From NCBI GenBank assembly GCA_040954595.2, contig CM082594.2, forward strand, positions 7,881,573 to 7,945,572: a stretch of DNA of 64,000 nucleotides, given 5' to 3'. The translations under genes were made by a program, and so were the position numbers. The DNA is from Balanoglossus misakiensis (Eukaryota > Animalia > Hemichordata). The first letter of the stretch is position 1. The number at the start of each line of letters is the position of its first letter. Below, in pieces: positions 4,045 through 20,924 of the stretch. The notes beneath the pieces are model-generated. The model saw only the letters and a list, made by a program, of their open reading frames with translations, did no database searches and was not told the origin of the DNA.

Positions 4045-6703
4045 GATCTATCTATCTATCTGTCAGTTTCTCTGGCACAGGGTATGGTCACACATTTAAC
4101 CTAGTGCCTCATGGTTACATATTTGGTATTTTATTTCCTCTTTATTAGATGGAGATGAATACAGAGGAGACACTGCAGTTGGCATGTGAACAGACAGAAA
4201 ACTATGGCTACTGTGGTCAGCTGTGGTTGGGACCATTCCACAGCTTTCTGGTTGTCCATCACCCTACGACTGTACAACCCATTGTAGCAACCATGGGTAA
4301 GACTTTCGTTTTGTGTGGACAGTATTTTTTTATTTTGGGTGAAATAAGCCATGCAAACCTCACAAGGTACCTTAAAGTGGAACATTTTATAAATTTTATT
4401 TTGTTGCAGAACCAAAGGATGAGTTTACCTATGGCTTGGTCAAACCCTGGCTGGGTGATGGATTGCTGTTAAGTAAAGGAGACAAATGGTACAGAAACAG
4501 GCGACTTTTGACCCCAGGATTCCACTTTGATATCTTAAAACCTTATGTTGAAGTGTTCAATGAATGTGCTAATACCATGGTGGTGAGTACTCACATCACA
4601 GTTTAATAATACACAGTAAACATCAATTAGCCTTAGCTATTTACATGTACCGGTATATATCTCAATGTCAAATAACCAGTTTCCAACACAGTACAATTTA
4701 CCTTATCGTTTCCCATTTCAGGACAAATGGATGAGCATACACCAGAAGGGAATGATAGAAATGTTTGAACACATAAGTTTGATGACATTGGATAGTCTCT
4801 TCAAGTGCATCTTCAGCATTGAAAGCAACTGTCAAACAGAAAAGTAAGTGTTTGTGGTGTAGAAATACTGAAAGAATACATTATTTTATGAAATTGCTTC
4901 CATTATTACATATCCGGCTACTGCAATTCCTTGCATTATTTTCCCACATCCAGGTCCCGAAATCCCTACATCAGCGCTGTCTACCAACTATCCGACATGG
5001 TCCTACAGCGAGTCAACTTCCCGCCGTATTTCAGCGACTTGGTCTATCACATGACGTACAGCGGACACAAGTGGAGGAAATGTCTGAGATTAGTTCACCA
5101 GCATTCCAGAAGAGTCATCAACCAGCGGAGAGAAGCGATGAAGCAAGATAAGAACGGAACCAAGAACAACAGGAAATACATTGATTTTCTGGATATTCTC
5201 CTAGCTGCTAGGGTGAGCATGGAAATAGGAAAGGAATACACCCTTTTCATAAATATAGCGCCCTCGTGCAGCCATCATGAATTTGAACTCAAAGCGAGGC
5301 CAATTTGAAATCCCCTTGATGTGATAGGTCAACTTTCAATTTCAGGATGAAGATGGCAAAGGTCTGACCGATCAAGAAATCCGGGATGAGGTTGACACAT
5401 TCTTGTTCGAAGGTCACGACACCACGGCCAGTGGACTTTCCTGGATCATGTACAACCTAGCCAGACACCCGGAATATCAGAAGAAATGCCAGGAAGAGAT
5501 TGATGAAGTGCTGGATGCCAAGGGAGAAGACAAGCTGAAATGGTGAGTATGGAAAACTTCTGTCGTGATGACAAATTTAGCTCCTGTGTTCACACACCAT
5601 GGTTTAATGTCTGTGGATTTCTGTCTGTCTGTCTGTCTGTCTGTCTGCGTCAGTGCTATCTTAAGAGACCTTGCTGTATGACTGCATGGATGCCTAAATG
5701 ATCCTGCAGAGGCCTGGCCAATTTCGTATTAAAATCCTCTCAGCTAGCTAATTTACATTCAATTCTGTCTTCCAGGGAAGATCTTGGCCAACTACCATAC
5801 CTCACAATGTGCATCAAGGAAAGCCTTCGTCTGCACCCACCAGTGCCTGCCATTGGTCGCAAACTGAACAAACCGATCACCATTCCGTTTGAAGGACAGA
5901 AAATCACCATGCCAGCCGGTTAGCACATATCTTTGTTTCGAGAGAATCGTCATTGCAGAAATTCATCAATTATCACTCAATCTAAGTTTCAGATTGCAGT
6001 ATAGTTGTTATAACATCAGACAGTTATTTTGTAAATAATGTTTGTTGTTGTTGTTGTTTTTCAGGGCAGCGTGTTCTCATTAGCATATTGAGTCTACATC
6101 ACAATGCAAAGGTTTGGAAAGATCCTGAAATATTCGACCCACTGAGGTTTTCACCTGAGAACACCAAAGACAGATCACCACATGCCTACCTGCCGTTCTC
6201 AGCTGGACCAAGGTAACATCATGATGTAACATGTACATTTATATTTCCAAAACTCTAACCCTATCATGCCCAGTTCCCTCTACATAGGGCCAACTTTGCC
6301 ATAGAAAAACAATGTATTTGGATTCATATGCTATTGCACAATGGAAGTTGTTGGGACTGGAATATGCATAGCCAAGCAGTTCATAATCTTTTTGGCAAAA
6401 TCTGGCACTATGAAGACTGATATGCAACAATTATGAGCCAGCTTGATGTTTCTGCAATTATTTTAAACTATAATCCAACACCAAAAACGAAAGCAAGTTA
6501 TATTTATATATGTGTCTGCTTTTTTTCTCAGGAACTGCATCGGTCAGAACTTTGCAATGAGTGAGATGAAGGTAATTACAGCCCTGGTGCTGAGAAATTT
6601 CGACTTGGCCGTTGATGACTTTAAGTTGATACGCCGAAACAACACCATTGTCTTGAGATCAGAGGGCGGGCTGCCTCTTCATGTCAAACCACGCAGGAAT
6701 TAG
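3531..6703 (+). CDS. Cytochrome P450 family 4 (CYP4F-like), copy A, 9 exons, intact
   Basis: Exons join in frame. N-terminal TM anchor, [14 protein letters not shown] (C-helix), [16 protein letters not shown] (CYP4 I-helix), [11 protein letters not shown] (ExxR), FDPLRF and heme motif [14 protein letters not shown]. Stop TAG at 6701-6703. Confidence 0.95.
3822..4063. repeat. Compound (TCTG)n/(TCTA)n microsatellite in intron 1 of CYP4 copy A
   Basis: Directly visible tetranucleotide runs. Confidence 0.95.
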
Positions 6704-7922: not shown

Positions 7923-10900
7923 ATGGGCGACAACATGGACGTGGATATTTCGTTGTTCAAGCCTTTCGCGCAGGCCGTGCTGGCCAGCGGTACAGGTCGG
8001 TCATATTTCGATCTTTTGGTCGTGGTCTTGATCACCCTGACGACGTTCTACTTGGCGAAAACATTTACAAGACTCTTGAAGATGCGCTGGGCCAGCGAAA
8101 AAGCCTTGGCTCCGTTCGAGTCGATGGACAGACATCCGATATTTGGACATTTGAACAAGGTAAACAAAAACTACATATACTAGCATAACAAATTATCTCG
8201 TCAGGGAAAATCAGTTTCTATAAGCTTATAAACTCCTTCGGTTGACAATTTTTGCAACACTCGTATTTAAATTCATGATCGCTTACCTTCGCAACCAATG
8301 TTCATGAGTGCGATTTCGCAAACAAGAGCGAATTTCCTGACCAGCCTCCATGTCTTCCAGTTGAATTTAAATGCAGAAGAAACTGTGCATATAGCCGGCG
8401 AGACCACCTGGGTGCGACCGTTCGGTAACCAATTGTGGTTCGGCCCGTTTCACGCCATGCTAATATGCCACCACCCGTCTACTGTGCAACCAATCATGGC
8501 AACAGCAGGTATGAACCTTTACTTTATTATATCACATAGTGTATCTCTCCATTGTCATCCCTCCAAATTCATCCTCCTATCACCATCAACCTCCACACTA
8601 GTAATTTCTCTCCACGACCAATTTGATAGTAAATGCGACACCAAGCATTGTACAACTGGTTAGCTGTTTGGTGCGAACTGTACACGAACAACAGCAAGTC
8701 GATTTCAAAGTTTAAATTGCGTCCTTTGGAGTCAACGAACTTTTGGCGCTCCTACGTAACAACAGAGAAAGACAACAAATCAATGAATAATAACTGTTGT
8801 CTAGTCGCATAGTTTAATATGGTGATTTTGAAGATAGAACAACAGCCGGGGACGTTGAAAACCCTTCTAACAAGGAACTCGTCGATTGAACTTGTATTTC
8901 AGAGCCAAAGGATGAGTTTATGTACGGAATGATCAAACCCTGGTTGGGTGACGGTTTGCTGATAAGTAAAGGGGATAAATGGTACAGAAACAGGCGACTT
9001 TTGACCCCCGGATTCCACTTTGATATCTTAAAACCTTACGTTGAAGTGTTTAATGAATGTGCTAAAACAATGGTGGTAAGTATTCAAATCACGTTTTTAA
9101 AAAAAAGCAGTAACCGCCTCTATTGGCCAAAGTTGCTGTATATCTGAACGTCAAATAACCAGTTTCCAACGCAGTACAATTTATGTACACACAAGTAGAA
9201 AGCTCTTATGGTTTATCCAAATGTGAAGAGACTGCATTTTCCATTTCAGGACAAATGGATGAGCATACACCAGAAGGGAATGATAGAAATGTTTGAACAC
9301 ATAAGTTTGATGACATTGGATAGTCTTTTCAAGTGCATCTTCAGCATTGACAGTAACTGTCAGCGAGACCTGTAAGTATTATCACATGAAACGGAGAATT
9401 TTTCATTTTTGTCTACCATTCGTGGATTGTTTTCTTAGCAAAGACTATCTTTTTCGTCCATCCTGTAATCACACTCATTTCATTCGGTTGTCTTTCTTTT
9501 TCTAGGGCAGAGAATTCCTACATAGCGGCAGTCCACAAGTTATCCACTTTGATCATCGAGAGGATGAATTTCCCGCCATACTTCAGCGATCTGATCTACC
9601 ACCTGACCTACAGCGGCTACACCTGGCGAAAGGCTTTGCGAACTGTTCATGAAGATTCCACGAGCGTCATTAAAAAACGCAGACAGGCGTTGGAGGATGA
9701 CAAGAAACGGGGGACAAAGAGTAACCGAAAGTACATCGATTTTATGGATATCTTGCTCGCTGCGAGGGTATGTGATTTAAGACAGAGAGGTTTTGTACAC
9801 AGATTGAAAGGTTTAGTTGCCTGTGTTTGGGTCGGGTAGTGTAGTGCCGGCATATCTGTGTAGGCCAACAAAGCTCGGGAAGTCAATACGAGTGGGAATG
9901 AAGAATGTTCGCACAAAGCATAACAATTGGTGAATGACTGAGTTGTTCGCTCAAGAGGGCTGGTCGTGTATATCGCGTTCTTATGCGACCCATCATATAC
10001 TGTAGAAAAGGCAGTACATGTACATGCATGGTCCTGTCTGTTTGTTTGTTTGTTTACTGAAACCTTTACCCGTGCTTCTTCAGGATGAAGATGGCAAAGG
10101 TCTTACCGATCAAGAAATCCGTGATGAGGTCGACACGTTCTTGTTCGAAGGTCACGACACCACGGCCAGTGGGCTTTCCTGGATCATGTACAACCTGGCC
10201 AGACACCCGGAATATCAGAAGAAATGCCAAGAAGAGATTGATGAAGTTCTGGATAATAAGGATAATGACATGATCGAATGGTAAGCATGATTTATTAAAA
10301 ATCGAAACGTAAACAAGATTGCAATGGACCAGAGGTTTTACTAGAATACGGATGATTATTAGTATCATAATTCAAACGTGAACTCTTTACCTTTAACATT
10401 GGTAAAATTTTCAAACAAACTCTGCATCTCTCTGCCCCCTTCTCTGTCCCCCTCTCCCCCCCCCCACACACACACCGTGACACACTCTGTGCAGGGACGA
10501 TCTCGGCAAACTGCCCTATCTCACAATGTGCATCAAAGAAAGTCTCCGGCTGCATCCCCCAGTCCCGTTCATCGGTCGCAAACTCGGCAGACCGATCACC
10601 ATGGCCTCGTCAAAGGGCAAGGTGGAAATCCCAGCGGGTAAGTAAGAATTATGGTGTTTTATACGCAATGCTTCAAAGTATACATTTATATGTGTCCGTT
10701 ACACACTCAGTTACACGTGGGCTCCAAAATCAGTTCAGAGCTGACTCGGAATTGGAGCCCAAATGAGACTTTGGTCCGTTAAATGTATACGGCCACCAAA
10801 CCAATGTAAGTTTATCGACAGTTCATGGAAAATCGAGACTTAGCCAATCACCCTATCCAATACGCGTCAATATGCATACATGTATTATCCCGGCTACGTT

Positions 10901-11563
10901 AAATTTTGTCTATATTTCCAGGTGAGAGAATTGGAATAAGCATCATGAGTTTGCATCATCACAGTTTAGTGTGGGAAGACCCAGAGGTATACGACCCGCT
11001 GAGGTTTTCACCCGAGAACACCAAAGACAGATCACCACACGCCTACCTGCCGTTCGCAGCTGGACCAAGGTAATGCAGAAAAGATCTACCTATGTTTCAT
11101 TTATTTGTATATGTATATCCATTCAGGCCAAGCAAAAAAACAGCGTTGTTCCTATAACTTGCGTGGTAGCCAGGTAGATCAGAAACAAATAATTTCCTAT
11201 ATTTTTTTGCACGATTTGAAAACATCCTACACACGAAGCTCAAGATCGGTTCCTTCACAACACATGTGAAATTGTATGAATTTTGCGATTCATCGGTTCG
11301 TCTTTTTCATCCTTGATGGTCTGTATCAACCACGTTCAAGTAATAAATACACACCTTTTATTCCCATTACTTCCAGGAATTGCATTGGACAGAACTTTGC
11401 TATGTACGAGATGAAAGTCATCACGGCGCTGGTGCTGCGAAACTTCAATTTGAGCGTCGATGATTTCCGGAGGGTTCGTCGCTACAACGCCGTTGTGATG
11501 AGAAGTGAGGGCGGCCTTCCACTGTACGTGAAACCGCGAATGCGCGACAACCCGAAAAAGTGA
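7923..11563 (+). CDS. Cytochrome P450 family 4 (CYP4F-like), copy B, tandem paralogue with the same 9-exon structure
   Basis: Same motifs ([41 protein letters not shown]) and matching intron positions to copy A. The start could be ATG 7923 or 7935. Stop TGA at 11561-11563. Confidence 0.95.
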
Positions 11564-12123
11564 AGATTGTTGAACAGTTTTTTGCCACTTTCGCAATCAC
11601 AGTCCGTCTGCAGTTGATTTTATCTTTAATTATACTTTACAAATGAGCGGAACATGTAATATTTGATTCAACTGATAAACCAAAAACTGGACGTTTAAGA
11701 TGTTCAGTCGACTGCATGCTAATTTGTCATTTCCTTTAACTAGACCAGACACGCCCAGTTTTAGTGGGCAGACACCCCCTTTCGATACAGCATTATTGGA
11801 TTAGTTTGCGGATTAAAGATGATCCTGTAATATCTAGTCTATACAGCACATATAAGCTGGAATTGAAGGACCAAATGCCTTGTTATATAAACTCTTGTTT
11901 TATTATATAATAAGTTGGTGCGCACGATTTCTATGGCGGGCTCTATTGAAGTAAAGGTCATGTTATTTTCAGTCTTATTAATTATTTTATTTTGCATGTT
12001 TAATTGAATTATATTAAAATTAAGTGTCCTTTCGGACAATATTCATCAAAATCGACTGCTTGAAAAACGAAGGCTATGTTAGCGACCAATCATTAAAACA
12101 CGTCATTATACCCACTTGAAAAT

Positions 12124-14031
12124 TTAGGGAAGCGAGGCAGTTTCAGTCGATTTTTTCGGTTTCATTTTTGCCGTCGGTCGGAGAGCAGTAATGGCAGAAA
12201 ACAAGGGCAATACCACAACTGTCAGCAACATTGATAATATCCAAAAATCTTTGCGAAATATGAGTAGATTCACCATGGTGACGATGGCGCTGAAGAGAGA
12301 GTAACACCAGAGGTATTTGAAACTGGAGATAAACACGTTACTTTTCATAAATTCCTCTTCCACGGCTCGCTGTGGTATCCATGTACAGGTGCTTGACACG
12401 TTCGCTCTGATGGCAGACACCAGCCGCACCGTCCCGACAATCGACTCGGGTGTGAACTGCAACACCGCGCATATGGTCTCCACAAAGATCAGGTGTGCGT
12501 TCCTGAACTTCAGAATGGCTAACTTGGGAACCACGATTACTAGCAACATGACGGTTGTCAAGGGAAGAGTGGAGTGTCTCAAATACACGTTGTATTGCAG
12601 GGTCGCGTACAGTAGAAGAAGGGGCTTCATGAACATCACACGGAGCGCCGAATGCGATACGTAGGCACTGACGAGATCAAAATTGCACGCCGTTCTCAAC
12701 TTGGTGTCCACAAACTTGTCTTTTTGAAGTTTCCTTTTGATCCACCGCATCGGTTTTCCCACCAGGGTTCTCCAGAAGTATCCCGCCAGCAGGATTTCTC
12801 CTTTGTTCCAGCGCCGTTCCCGAATATGCCAAGTGACGTAGTTGAAGCAAGGGCTTTCCAAGAGAAAGACGTTGCCGGCGTAGAGCGGTTTCAGGATCGC
12901 TGCCTCGAATGTGTCGTGGCTGAGAATATCCACGGGTACCATCTCAATCGGCTTGTCGCGGTACCCAATGACCTTCTCGATGTAGATCTTGTTTTTGATG
13001 AGCGCCTTGCCGAAGAAACCACACTGTCCCAGAACATCCGACATGGCGTGGGCGATGTCGGCGTTCACCTGTTGGCGGATTTTTTCCAGGTGCATGAAGA
13101 GTGTATCGCCGTCGCACACCTCCATGGCTATAGCCGGTTGGATGATAGCCCTGTCTGGATTGGCCGCCGCTATAGCTAGAAGCTCGTGAGCCACTCCGGG
13201 GAGGACGGTCGTATCCCCGTCCAAGACGAGTGTGTAATCGAAGCGTCTATCGCGGATGTTGAGAACATCGACGGAGCTGTAAAATAAAGGTTCGCCGTAA
13301 GGTCGGGCCATTGTGCCGTAGAGGTAACTGTCGGTGTAGGTGTACGCTTTGTCATCACCGGCGCTGAGCAGCATCAAATCTTGGTACTGTCCACACTTGC
13401 GGAGGACCCGGCTCACCCGATGGACGACCATGAACTCCTTTGCCGCATCACTGCAAATCTCCTCTGCATTAGTCAACACGTATCTTTTAGAGAATCTCTT
13501 CCAGAACGTCTTCAGTCTTCCCTGGTCGACCAAGGACTCGCTGCCAAAGGCGTAGGAGAAGCTTTCCTCTAGGAGAACTTGGTAAATCATGAGCCTGTAG
13601 AACTGACACATCTCTAGTTCGCGCTGGTAAAAATCACCATCATTGGTGGCGCTTATCAGAACAGCCGAAACATTCACGCTAAGATTTCCGAGAAAAGCCT
13701 GGTACATCCTGAAGAAAGTTTCGTCGATCTCAGATTGGCTGCCGGCCAACAAATTGTAGGCCATGATGAGACTTAAATGGGAGTTGTCGGACGTTCTTGT
13801 AATTGGCTGTCCACGCTTCAAGCGGTACAAAACAGTGACAATGGCAGTGACGAGAATTTCGGCCACGCTGCTGTGGAGAAGTCCGACCACGATACACAGA
13901 CAGATTCCCTGCACGGTGGATGACAGCTCCCAGTCGATGTTCAAGACGCAGAGGACGACAGCAGTTGAAGTAAAAAATCCCCAGGCCCCAAAGAACAACA
14001 AAACCCCACTGGACGTCGAAACTTCTCTCAT
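12124..14031 (-). CDS. Intronless membrane-bound GT2 processive glucosyltransferase, OpgH/MdoH- and cyclic beta-1,2-glucan synthase (Cgs/NdvB GT domain)-like
   Basis: 635-aa single ORF with two N-terminal TM segments, HRVSRVLRKCG (cf. OpgH RKxGN, Cgs RKRGK), DYTLVLDGDT (DxD), AIIQP, GFFGKALI (cf. Cgs GxFxGKGI), ILSHDTFEA (cf. OpgH ILSHDFVEA), RERRWNKG (cf. RDRRWCxG) and several C-terminal TM segments. An AATAAA lies on the minus strand at 11986-11991. Confidence 0.85.
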   Translation of the reverse strand: MREVSTSSGVLLFFGAWGFFTSTAVVLCVLNIDWELSSTVQGICLCIVVGLLHSSVAEILVTAIVTVLYRLKRGQPITRTSDNSHLSLIMAYNLLAGSQSEIDETFFRMYQAFLGNLSVNVSAVLISATNDGDFYQRELEMCQFYRLMIYQVLLEESFSYAFGSESLVDQGRLKTFWKRFSKRYVLTNAEEICSDAAKEFMVVHRVSRVLRKCGQYQDLMLLSAGDDKAYTYTDSYLYGTMARPYGEPLFYSSVDVLNIRDRRFDYTLVLDGDTTVLPGVAHELLAIAAANPDRAIIQPAIAMEVCDGDTLFMHLEKIRQQVNADIAHAMSDVLGQCGFFGKALIKNKIYIEKVIGYRDKPIEMVPVDILSHDTFEAAILKPLYAGNVFLLESPCFNYVTWHIRERRWNKGEILLAGYFWRTLVGKPMRWIKRKLQKDKFVDTKLRTACNFDLVSAYVSHSALRVMFMKPLLLLYATLQYNVYLRHSTLPLTTVMLLVIVVPKLAILKFRNAHLIFVETICAVLQFTPESIVGTVRLVSAIRANVSSTCTWIPQRAVEEEFMKSNVFISSFKYLWCYSLFSAIVTMVNLLIFRKDFWILSMLLTVVVLPLFSAITALRPTAKMKPKKSTETASLP

Positions 14032-15209
14032 AATTGCCCATCGTGAAGACTACAGTCGAGACACTATAGCATTTACGTTATCGCAAGTGCGTGAAAAGTT
14101 GGCGTCGTCAAATTGGCCGAATCTGAAGATGGCCGCCTCACCGACGCTGATCATCCTTTTTTTTACACTGACACTCACAGCTGTGAACGCACGTTTCATG
14201 GCTACTTGAATTGAAAATAAATGGTACCTTTACCAGATCCAATAATGCAGCGAACAATATTAGCTATCATGATTAGGCTATTATTCTGAAAATACGTCTG
14301 AAAACAATTTGCAAACATATGGTGCACAGTTCACTAATGAAGCTTTCAACGGATGCCTCATCAACATTATCCCCCCCCCCCCTCCCCCCGAAAAGCACAT
14401 CTGGTCAAGAATGAGAGCAGGTAATTATCTTTATAAATGCATCCCTAAATGTGAAAAGGTCACTCTACAGCTGTGCTGCAACCTGGTCACATAATACGCA
14501 AATTATTTGGCAGTGTGAATTTTAATATATCGCGTCATGATTTGGAAGTTGATTAACAGTACACTACTTGTTTAACGCTAAAAGCGTTGCCAGTTCGCGA
14601 GCCAGCAAGGCTGGGTACAATCACGTGGGTGAGAAATAGGGGGAGGGGGATTCAGAATGAGTATAAACATTCAAAAGCACACACACACACACACTGGAAT
14701 AACAAGTTCGCGCGTGATGGTGACAGGTACAAAATAATATTTTACCACTTGCATATGAAAAGTAAGATATACAAAAATGTCCAAGCCAAAATATTTTACA
14801 AAATAAAGCAATATCAAGTGAATGGTGTTCCAAACGAATGTTGATGAGAGCAGAGAGTTTGTTGTCTGGAAAAAATTCTGCATTAGACCAAGACGTAATA
14901 GATGAAGTCTTCTTTCCATACAATTACAAAGTGTTTCAAAGATGACTGCATAAATATTTAGTATCGCGAAAGAACACTGTCTACCTTCAAGAGAATTAAT
15001 GTAAGATGGCCCATATTTTTTTTTTTTGGTGCGGGGTCAAGTGCAATTTTTGCTTGCATTTCAAAAATGCAGTACAGATATTAAGAGTATTGGTAGTTGA
15101 AACATTTGCTTCAAATGCAGTCCATATTTCGGAGAGACTGCAGCAATATTTTAGTCACATTTCATAAGACACGGAGACCATTTGCATTACATGACTGTAA
15201 TTTGACTAT

Positions 15210-15543: not shown

Positions 15544-19042
<3,499 letters not shown>

Positions 19043-19512
19043 GCTTTATTATTTCCGTGCCGGTGGTACCGAGATTAAATTAAAAATGTACAAGATGAAC
19101 GCTGATTTCTAACAAGTATTCAGCAGAACTCCTGCACAGTCATGCGGAGTTTTTCCAAGATGGCGGAATTTACCTCTTTCGGCTGTAAATTATTATGTGT
19201 GAAAATAAACTTGCCAAATCCAAAGCTTATGTGATAAGACCTTCCAAACATATATATTTACCTATAACTATCCCAATCTTATAAAAGTGGAAAACAAATA
19301 CTATGTATTTTCGGCCTAAATTGCTATAGAAACGTTCCGTCTGTACGAGGCTGAAAAGAGGTTGATGTCACGAGATCAAAGGTCGTTACTATGAAACGGG
19401 GAAGCTAACAACAATCGAACCCCGGAAGTGAAGTGGCTATATCTGGAACTCAAGAGATCAACGCAGCATTTTAATGTTTGTACCCCGCCATTGCAGGGCA
19501 TAGAGCAGCGAC
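19043..19512. promoter_or_regulatory. Bidirectional promoter region between CCT5 and TEX49-like
   Basis: Head-to-head starts 470 bp apart. YY1-like CAAGATGGCGG at about 19156 and ETS-like CCGGAAGTG at about 19422. Confidence 0.55.
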
Positions 19513-20924
19513 ATGTCATTTTTCAATTTAACCTGCCTTGGCTATCAAGACCCGATCCGAGAGCGAGTTGTCGTTCCCAACAGAGAACAATCGTACTCGT
19601 TGATACACGGTATTCCACAGGGCAGCCATGTCTCGTTCCGACCGGCCACTTCAAAGTTACCACCCATCGACATGTCCAAGTACAACAGGGTTGTTGAACC
19701 AGCCCCGCCAACTGCACAACCACACCAGGGTTCATACGTTAGATACACAACGCAACTTAGAAAGCATAACAGGAATGCCAGCGGTGAGTGGAGTGGTTGT
19801 ACTTTGTAGTAAACACAAATTTTGAAACTTAAAAATACCAACCAACCAACTGAAGAGATGATCACTGCTTGTGTAACAATTAAAACAATAGAAAATAAAA
19901 TCATTATATACGCGTTAATCGATCACATTCATCTCATACCGTTAAATTATAATAAGCAAAGGACATCTATTATTAAACTTACTATTCAATACAGAAAGAT
20001 ACAGATATGGCAACATTTATTTTATAGACTCGATTGTCAAAATGAACTATTCAAAGATTAAAATACTTGGGGTAGTTCAAATACTACTGAACATTGGTTA
20101 ATAAAGATAACATGCCTCTGGAGTCACTTAAAAGGTATTGTAAAATGCAAAGTAAATTAGTTTAGGTCAAAGTATGGCAAGTGTAACCAGGTGCACTGAA
20201 GCTGTATCTGGTATGTACACATGTATCTTGACTTTATATAGTATTTATGTGACTTCAAGTTGGTATGTTTTAATACCTTATTTTCATAATAAGTTTCATA
20301 AAGGGGGCACACTCAAGCTTGTTTGCCAACACATTGTTCAGTGTGTCGTCAGTTCTGTAGAAAGTCTAGTGAAAGTTTCTGAGATTGTCTGATTTCATAG
20401 GTTGCTGATATGCATCTTGTTACTTCGTAGCTCCCAACAGAATCTATCGTGTTCCGCTAACAACGGCACAGACAACAGGATGGTGGGACAGAGGAGACCA
20501 GTTGTCTGCAAGAGAACCTTGGACCCATGTGAAAAGACATGTGCATAGAAACAGTGAGATGACAAGGTGAGTTAGAATATTGAGCGTGAGCTTGTTTGTT
20601 TTCTGAATGACTCCATAGGATGAGTCTGTCAAGGATGAACCAGTGCTTATCAAAGCATTCCGTTTTCCTTGAATGTTCTTCTTACCCTGTGAACAACAAA
20701 GTCCCCTACCTCACATCCGTTTCATCTTCTTTGATTTGGTTTCCAAGGAGTTGTCGAAGGTGCTCAAAAATATGCCAGTTGGGAATTTCCATTCAACTCT
20801 GTTGTCATTCAAGCCCCCTCGCTCGTGTTTTCAAAACTGTTTTTAATAACTACTATAAAATCTTCTTTCTTCCAGGTTCGTCAATGAAATGAGTCTGACC
20901 AACAAAGAATTCAGTTTATTCTAA
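19513..20924 (+). CDS. TEX49: TEX49/SPMIP11-like sperm or ciliary microtubule inner protein, 3 coding exons
   Basis: MSFFNLTCLGYQD...KLPPI...HQGSYVRY | APNRIYRVPLTTAQTTGWW...PWTHVKRHVHRNSEMTR | FVNEMSLTNKEFSLF*. This is collinear with vertebrate TEX49 as I recall it (MAFFNLYLLGYQ...RLPPI...PNQVFRIPLT...MTRF...FSLY). Exons are about 19513-19783, 20431-20566 and 20876-20924. Confidence 0.8.

Follow-up and report, generated by a model that had tools for sequence, protein, structure and literature searches.

An intronless acorn-worm gene encodes a predicted membrane glycosyltransferase of a putative third lineage beside OpgH and Cgs, with beta-1,2-glucan as a possible product

We analyzed a 64-kb window of the acorn worm Balanoglossus misakiensis (the whole stretch of 64,000 nucleotides presented above) and found in it a stop-free, intronless ORF of 635 codons at positions 12124-14031 of the minus strand. 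From sequence comparison and structural modelling, its product is very probably a functional member of the clan of Cgs and OpgH, and the sequences indicate that its family is a third lineage beside these two enzymes, a member of neither. We propose, with a probability of roughly 0.45, that this family is a third branch of beta-1,2-glucan synthases, present in molluscs, acorn worms, ribbon worms, dinoflagellates and giant viruses, that it provides animals with such a glucan, and that its fusions with ABCC-type transporters are single-chain synthesise-and-export machines, which dinoflagellates would have built by placing up to five or more synthase modules in NBD1 of an ABCC pump, as a eukaryotic counterpart of the bacterial pair Cgs and Cgt. 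The gene and its surroundings are as follows.

4376-6700, plus strand: P450 gene 1 (Pfam, 6 exon pieces)
8890-11560, plus strand: P450 gene 2 (Pfam, 6 exon pieces)
11986..11991, minus strand: candidate poly(A) signal AATAAA, 133 nt 3' of the stop (motif position)
12124..14031, minus strand: intronless CDS, 635 aa, predicted standalone membrane glycosyltransferase of the Cgs/OpgH clan (ORF scan, homologs, AlphaFold model, Cgs alignment)
13733..14041, minus strand: overlapping out-of-frame uORF of 103 codons, ATG at 14041, 10 nt 5' of the main ATG
14112-14116, minus strand: CCAAT box, candidate host-type promoter (motif position)
14126-14136, minus strand: YY1-like 11-mer, 95 nt before the start, candidate promoter (motif scan)
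15547-18460, minus strand: TCP-1/cpn60 (CCT) gene (Pfam, 8 pieces)

The ORF is the longest with an ATG start in the window, the runner-up being 321 aa long (n = 17 ORFs of at least 120 aa). Its 3' end faces that of the second multi-exon P450 gene, and the CCT gene is on its upstream side, as described in the first-pass annotation, whose labels CYP4 and CCT5 are supported to the Pfam family level (P450 and TCP-1/cpn60). The same annotation presented it as the only intronless gene among split ones, which holds in comparison with the flanking P450 and CCT genes, to which this comparison is limited. The AATAAA it placed about 130 nt after the stop begins at 11991, and its upstream CCAAT and YY1-like motifs were both located. 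The YY1-like 11-mer matched 5 times in the window versus 0.35 expected, and a second motif of this type lies about 115 nt 5' of the CCT start codon. Since these motifs are enriched in the window and one is found similarly far upstream of the CCT gene, the promoter of the glycosyltransferase (GT) ORF looks native-type. The ATG of the uORF is in a strong start context, stronger than that of the main ATG. The P450 neighbours are a tandem pair and not one gene, the first exon of the CCT gene resembles what we take to be subunit epsilon, and an SPMIP11-family gene (19504-20567, plus strand) stands head to head with the CCT gene, the two having a short promoter region in common.

Three public sequencing runs (X1, X2 and X3) came from one sample, possibly the source sample. 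The depth of the X1 contig over the ORF was about 56, the same as over the flanks, and the stop codon was bridged by an X2 contig spanning 11960-12490; among the contigs listed, none bridged the start codon. The small run X3, labelled 'DNA?', gave spliced contigs over the CCT gene and no cover of 11870-14817, and says nothing on GT expression. Compared with the window, two allelic contigs had no gap and no stop in the ORF and differed at 7 of 399 synonymous and 7 of 1359 non-synonymous sites, a pN/pS of about 0.29 from small counts. In addition, homologs sit on contigs of 19-140 Mb. The ORF is genuine and intact, and it belongs to the host genome; depth, the contig over the stop, pN/pS and the hemichordate clade described below all agree with the earlier view of a retained gene and not a contaminant.

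The predicted protein is organized as follows.

13819..14028, minus strand: N-terminal membrane helices, residues 2-71 (predicted helices H2-31 and H39-71; hydropathy)
13645..13659, minus strand: LISAT motif at the first GT2 Asp position (Cgs D527), here Ala128 (profile alignment, strand motif in common)
12787..13782, minus strand: predicted cytosolic GT-A catalytic domain, about residues 84-415 (model, structural and profile alignments)
13213..13221, minus strand: DxD motif, D271/D273 (Cgs D624/D626; profile alignment, conservation)
12913..12921, minus strand: SHD motif with predicted catalytic base D373 (Cgs D739; profile alignment, conservation)
12808..12822, minus strand: RERRW motif, R407/W408 (RW motif at Cgs R773; profile alignment, conservation)
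12187..12651, minus strand: C-terminal membrane helices and interface helix, residues 461-615 (model, hydropathy)

A hydropathy scan gave membrane segments at residues 10-61 and 489-617, which corresponds to the TM helices first noted at the two ends, and every motif quoted from the uninterrupted ORF was located: FLGNL (113-117), RKCG (211-214), LDGDT (270-274), IIQP (296-299), GFFGKA (338-343), ILSHDTFEA (369-377) and RERRWNKG (404-411). The AlphaFold model, built from 59 sequences (pLDDT 92), predicts a compact bundle of membrane helices resembling TM1-6 of Cgs, with a GT-A domain docked beneath it. With Foldseek, three Cgs entries ranked first (TMq 0.61-0.66, E ~1e-14), followed by cellulose and hyaluronan synthases at a TMq of at most 0.49. 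The overlay on Cgs proposed at first pass was obtained with VIA-align, which placed residues 1-623 of the query onto residues 398-987 of Cgs with an rmsd of 3.5-3.7 over 505-511 residues (Z 20.6-23.4); BcsA reached a Z of 18.6, HAS 16.4 and PcManGT (6yv7) 18.1. Cgs was again at the top among 48,161 representative structures, in which chitin synthase had a Z of 12.4, and was the sole PDB match of the family profile under an E of 0.01 (E 0.006). The single-sequence PDB search had one match, to a proteasome beta subunit (E 3.6e-4, 92 residues), which we rejected as chance. In the viral structure set BFVD, a 609-aa GT2 of Yasminevirus (A0A5K0U8N8) matched the model with a TMq of 0.61 over its full length at 12% identity and is perhaps a further clan member.

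There was no OpgH structure among the PDB matches (Foldseek, VIA-align and the 48,161 representatives), and OpgH was compared by sequence only. In profile-profile alignments, the family scored 159 over 542 columns with 33 Cgs modules and 134 over 375 columns with 9 OpgH, at about 18-21% identity, whereas OpgH and Cgs scored 192 with each other, above the score of either with the new family. Atlas neighbours having a Pfam family were OpgH clusters (0.93), and the query obtained 20.3 bits with the NCBIfam MdoH equivalog (NF003958), below its cut-off of 419. The whole query superposes, as a predicted model, on the TM bundle and GT domain of Cgs, and it has equivalents of D624/D626, D739 and R773 and shares with Cgs the GK motif and an Asn that follows helix 3. 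It differs from Cgs by its low identity (14-18%), a GT domain longer by about 50 residues and Ala at the D527 position, and it is without the N-terminal domain, the cyclase, the phosphorylase and the GxDPY motif of Tyr694. In common with OpgH/MdoH, it is a membrane GT that stands alone, is about as large and carries DxD, QxxP, SHD and RxxRW; unlike them, it has GK in place of GH at the acceptor motif, has lost the first Asp and has no opgG/opgD context. Chitin, hyaluronan and cellulose synthases also carry a GT-A domain below a membrane bundle, but they have ED/QRRRW where the query has SHD/RERRW and they score lower than Cgs (Z 12-19, rmsd 4-5.5). The initial placement in the OpgH/Cgs clan, and not with these synthases, thus stands on the SHD and RERRW motifs and on Cgs as the best structural match.

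Residues aligned to the catalytic set of Cgs, in the numbering of PMC10901819, were conserved in 58-59 of the 59 family rows (D271 in 59/59, D273 and D373 each in 58/59), and the YN motif at residues 92-93 was kept. PMC11389396 reports that the DxD of Caulobacter OpgH (D245-D247) is needed for activity, and D271/D273 supply these residues in the query. At the column of the UDP-binding Cgs D527, whose register was taken from sequence profiles and not from coordinates, the family had Ala in 57/59 rows and Val in 2/59; the first Asp motif was kept in at least 29/33 Cgs and 8/9 OpgH. The GxDPY priming-Tyr loop (Cgs Tyr694), found in 29/33 Cgs, was absent from the query, and the nearest column held Tyr in 27/59 family rows and Asn in the query. 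A Pfam search of the 635-aa ORF gave no match, and the cyclase (GH144-like) and GH94 phosphorylase domains are thus absent; PF10091 and PF17167 were likewise listed for none of 22 long close homologs.

Both characterized branches of the clan, OpgH and Cgs, are described as making beta-1,2-glucan (PMC10901819, PMC11842490). On sequence and model, a linear beta-1,2-glucan made from UDP-glucose at the cytosolic face of the membrane is the likeliest product, at about even odds, and so the best guess of the first-pass annotation is maintained. D271/D273 would bind metal and UDP, and D373 would act as the base in an inverting transfer. Because there is no cyclase, the chain would be linear, and it would start on some primer other than the enzyme's own Tyr: a free glucoside, a lipid or another protein. 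The glucan would then leave through a separate ABC exporter, as with Cgs, and dinoflagellates would have fused this exporter to the enzyme. By analogy, and as speculation, the glucan might serve as an osmolyte, as a component of mucus or matrix, or as a microbe-directed signal. At 14-21% identity, the linkage made by a GT2 is not safely readable. Section 4 of PMC11842490 lists beta-1,2-glucans from bacteria and Chlorella only, which counts against an animal product.

With family and fold unchanged, the enzyme could make a different polysaccharide, with another linkage, sugar or nucleotide donor, which we hold to be unlikely while giving it real weight. Since OpgH and Cgs resemble each other (192) more than either resembles the new family, the latter may have split off before beta-1,2 specificity arose or may have moved away from it, and its branch from both is long. 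The nucleotide-sugar donor may differ because the first UDP-binding Asp is replaced family-wide (Ala or Val in 59/59 rows); the lack of the primer Tyr and a cellulose synthase just ~2-5 Z units behind Cgs point the same way. Against this, the query agrees with the beta-1,2 clan, and not with other processive GT2s, in its SHD, GK and RxxRW variants and in its six-helix layout over the whole length, and both YN and DxD are retained.

Fusions with ABC exporters count in favour of the preferred reading, a beta-1,2-glucan synthase. Among the relatives, 22 long protist-type homologs (1,694-3,337 residues) combined 1-3 GT modules, 39-48% identical to the query, with ABC transporter domains; one of them came from Polykrikos and several came from eukaryotic transcriptome sets.

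P0122-P0143, dinoflagellate-type transcripts: ABCC-type exporters with 1-3 GT modules in NBD1

In 20 of these 22 proteins, the modules are flanked by Walker A and Walker B of NBD1; of the other two, one is truncated at its N-terminus and the other did not match the Walker B pattern. Most of the fused modules had intact motifs, with one in P0123 and one in P0131 lacking several catalytic motifs, and a metagenome ORF (L014:198-11159) carried at least five modules inside an ABCC-type exporter. Cgs matches in the search for long relatives were not counted as evidence, since the query alignment contained a Cgs fragment and they are not independent. A GT inside NBD1 is a striking architecture regardless of the product, and it suggests cytosolic synthesis coupled to export. 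According to PMC10901819, the membrane part of Cgs is not a channel for export, a task that falls to a separate transporter of the glucan; a fusion of synthase and exporter therefore fits synthesis in the cytosol followed by pumping. In the 8 fusions scanned, the transporter scored best as MRP/ABCC and not as the bacterial glucan exporter ChvA/NdvA, which counts against a beta-1,2-glucan product. Other Pfam domains fused to family modules were an MFS transporter (P0187), a formin FH2 (P0190) and, in Batillaria, a glycosyl hydrolase PF11790 (P0093), the last of which may be a merged gene model.

Small conjugates are the typical cargo of ABCC pumps, and the fusions fit glucosylation and export of small molecules equally well. 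The enzyme could then be non-processive or short-chain, placing 1-3 glucoses on a small molecule or lipid in the manner of sophorosides, and the conjugate would be pumped out by an ABCC transporter. The missing primer Tyr and chain-processing domains are in keeping with this, as is the Z of 18.1 with PcManGT, a non-processive membrane GT, and section 4 of PMC11842490 mentions eukaryotic sophorosides. We nevertheless rate it as rather improbable: RxxRW, typical of processive synthases, is retained, PcManGT aligns over 329 residues compared with 508 for Cgs, and tandem arrays of up to at least five modules per protein fit a high-flux polymer output.

The distribution of the family bears on its origin. 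A homolog search found 134 among 7,996 candidates scored, and the best 120 listed bore at least 39 mollusc names (gastropods, bivalves and cephalopods) and at least 5 hemichordate names, the other entries being listed without a species. The best of the matches listed was a Ptychodera flava protein with 75% identity, on a 40 Mb contig; other acorn worms contributed three homologs in Glandiceps (59-63%) and one in Saccoglossus (53%). A phmmer scan of 1.84 billion representatives gave 173 homologs at E <=0.001, and 30 proteins looked up included a nemertean (Tubulanus), an ichthyosporean (Chromosphaera) and dinoflagellates (Biecheleria, Polykrikos, Noctiluca), whereas the majority of the 30 bore no species name. 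Among 87 matches (about 8,000 candidates scored), no animal phylum was named beyond molluscs, hemichordates and the nemertean; absences in these searches are weak because only about 8,000 candidates were scored in each. The patchy animal distribution expected at first pass was thus found. Closest outside the animals were genes of dinoflagellates and other protists (37-48%), then giant-virus genes (30-33%).

The viral homologs were full-length and sat on three contigs, two of them from giant-virus MAGs, at 30-33% identity; rescans of viral contigs returned the same three loci and none for the divergent clade. No glucan-pathway gene was present among 22 neighbouring ORFs scanned, and PF10091 had no match in one giant-virus bin. 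Several of 25 metagenome loci were of low GC with the family gene beside the same topoisomerase II. In the giant-virus-type loci (L002-L004, L024, L029-L031, L033 and L036), the family gene often directly follows DNA topoisomerase II, and in L033 it is seemingly split into two ORFs. Two low-GC contigs of 6-7 kb, bivalve-like, carried intronless ORFs about 70-72% identical to Mya proteins; between these two loci pN was 0.077 and pS saturated. The intronless state is therefore not peculiar to the window.

Trees were built from rows hand-picked from 194 modules, with FastTree (107 rows) and an IQ-TREE mixture model (45 rows). In both trees, the query was sister to Ptychodera (support 100) within a hemichordate clade (99), Cgs and OpgH fell outside the family on long branches, and the viral genes and a divergent protist/bacteria-like group branched before the animal genes. 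In the FastTree tree, which carries a long-branch warning, the 7 OpgH rows formed their own clade apart from the 92 family rows. The distinct clade suggested by the mixed motifs is upheld; the predicted nesting among OpgH or Cgs sequences is contradicted, both being remote (~18-21% identity) and outside. A dinoflagellate/protist clade (100) was placed within the molluscs in both trees. We did not accept this nesting, since animal monophyly was not rejected (p-AU 0.263) in an AU test of 17 named molluscs and hemichordates versus 20 protist, viral and outgroup rows, with Tubulanus and 7 unnamed rows free. Very large proteins with a divergent module (P0144, P0217, P0226 and P0244), some with a second, ordinary GT2 domain, grouped with Noctiluca and Chromosphaera proteins; they are probably bacterial and resemble what we take to be giant proteins of Elusimicrobiota-type MAGs.

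The trees indicate an old gene, vertically inherited in acorn worms and molluscs: either it is a bilaterian gene that most lineages have lost, or it was acquired repeatedly. It has moved between animals, protists and viruses, and the AU value of 0.263 fixes neither donor nor direction; a transfer from animals to dinoflagellates is allowed by the tree, not proven by it. The connection to bacteria goes far back. If there was an immediate donor, it could have been viral or protist, and no result suggests that the gene was recently captured from bacteria with OpgH or Cgs. Tunicate CesA has a similarly patchy animal distribution, but the query family occurs in at least three animal phyla, and the initial idea of a species-specific bacterial acquisition like tunicate CesA gives way to vertical descent with protists and viruses as nearest non-animals. 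A recent lineage-specific transfer from bacterium to animal, a contaminant or a decaying copy might be read from the intronless state, from a composition (GC 50%, GC3 65%) above that of the flanks (~40%) and from possible dampening of translation by the overlapping uORF, but it is barely credible and largely refuted, given that a GTDB pattern scan confirmed a single relative among 29 candidate stretches, a Cgs with 29% identity over 147 residues, that at least 44 of the 120 homologs listed bear mollusc or hemichordate names, that the hemichordate genes form one clade, that a GC3 of 0.65 also occurs in another host ORF and that the bivalve-like loci lack introns as well.

Among the top-ranked papers of full-text searches, mostly in open-access literature, none described the family, and exact names gave no paper; the supplements of an HGT compendium (PMC13342648) might list the gene. 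Some mollusc database records are auto-named 'glucosyltransferase H-like', and the family is without a Pfam model, its names coming from automatic transfer only; the likeness to OpgH is thus present in databases, yet the family appears unstudied. Since its closest studied relatives are bacterial beta-1,2-glucan synthases, animals may make a polymer so far mainly bacterial. In PMC11842490, beta-1,2-glucans are described as molecules that protect bacteria from osmotic stress and take part in their interaction with hosts, alongside a single report from an alga, and the GH162 beta-1,2-glucanases are described as almost all eukaryotic (PMC12102758). If the beta-1,2-glucan reading is true, it would reveal a new animal polysaccharide pathway, with a gene conserved across oysters, scallops, abalone, octopus and acorn worms, and a candidate eukaryotic source of the GH162 substrate. 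The small single-domain enzyme would be simpler to assay than the 2,800-residue Cgs. Within the homologs listed, freshwater bivalves accounted for at least 6 (Sinanodonta), 5 (Dreissena) and 3 (Potamilus) clusters and the marine Glandiceps for at least 3, these figures being cluster counts among the matches listed and not copy numbers; a link between the richness in freshwater bivalves and hypo-osmotic life is possible.
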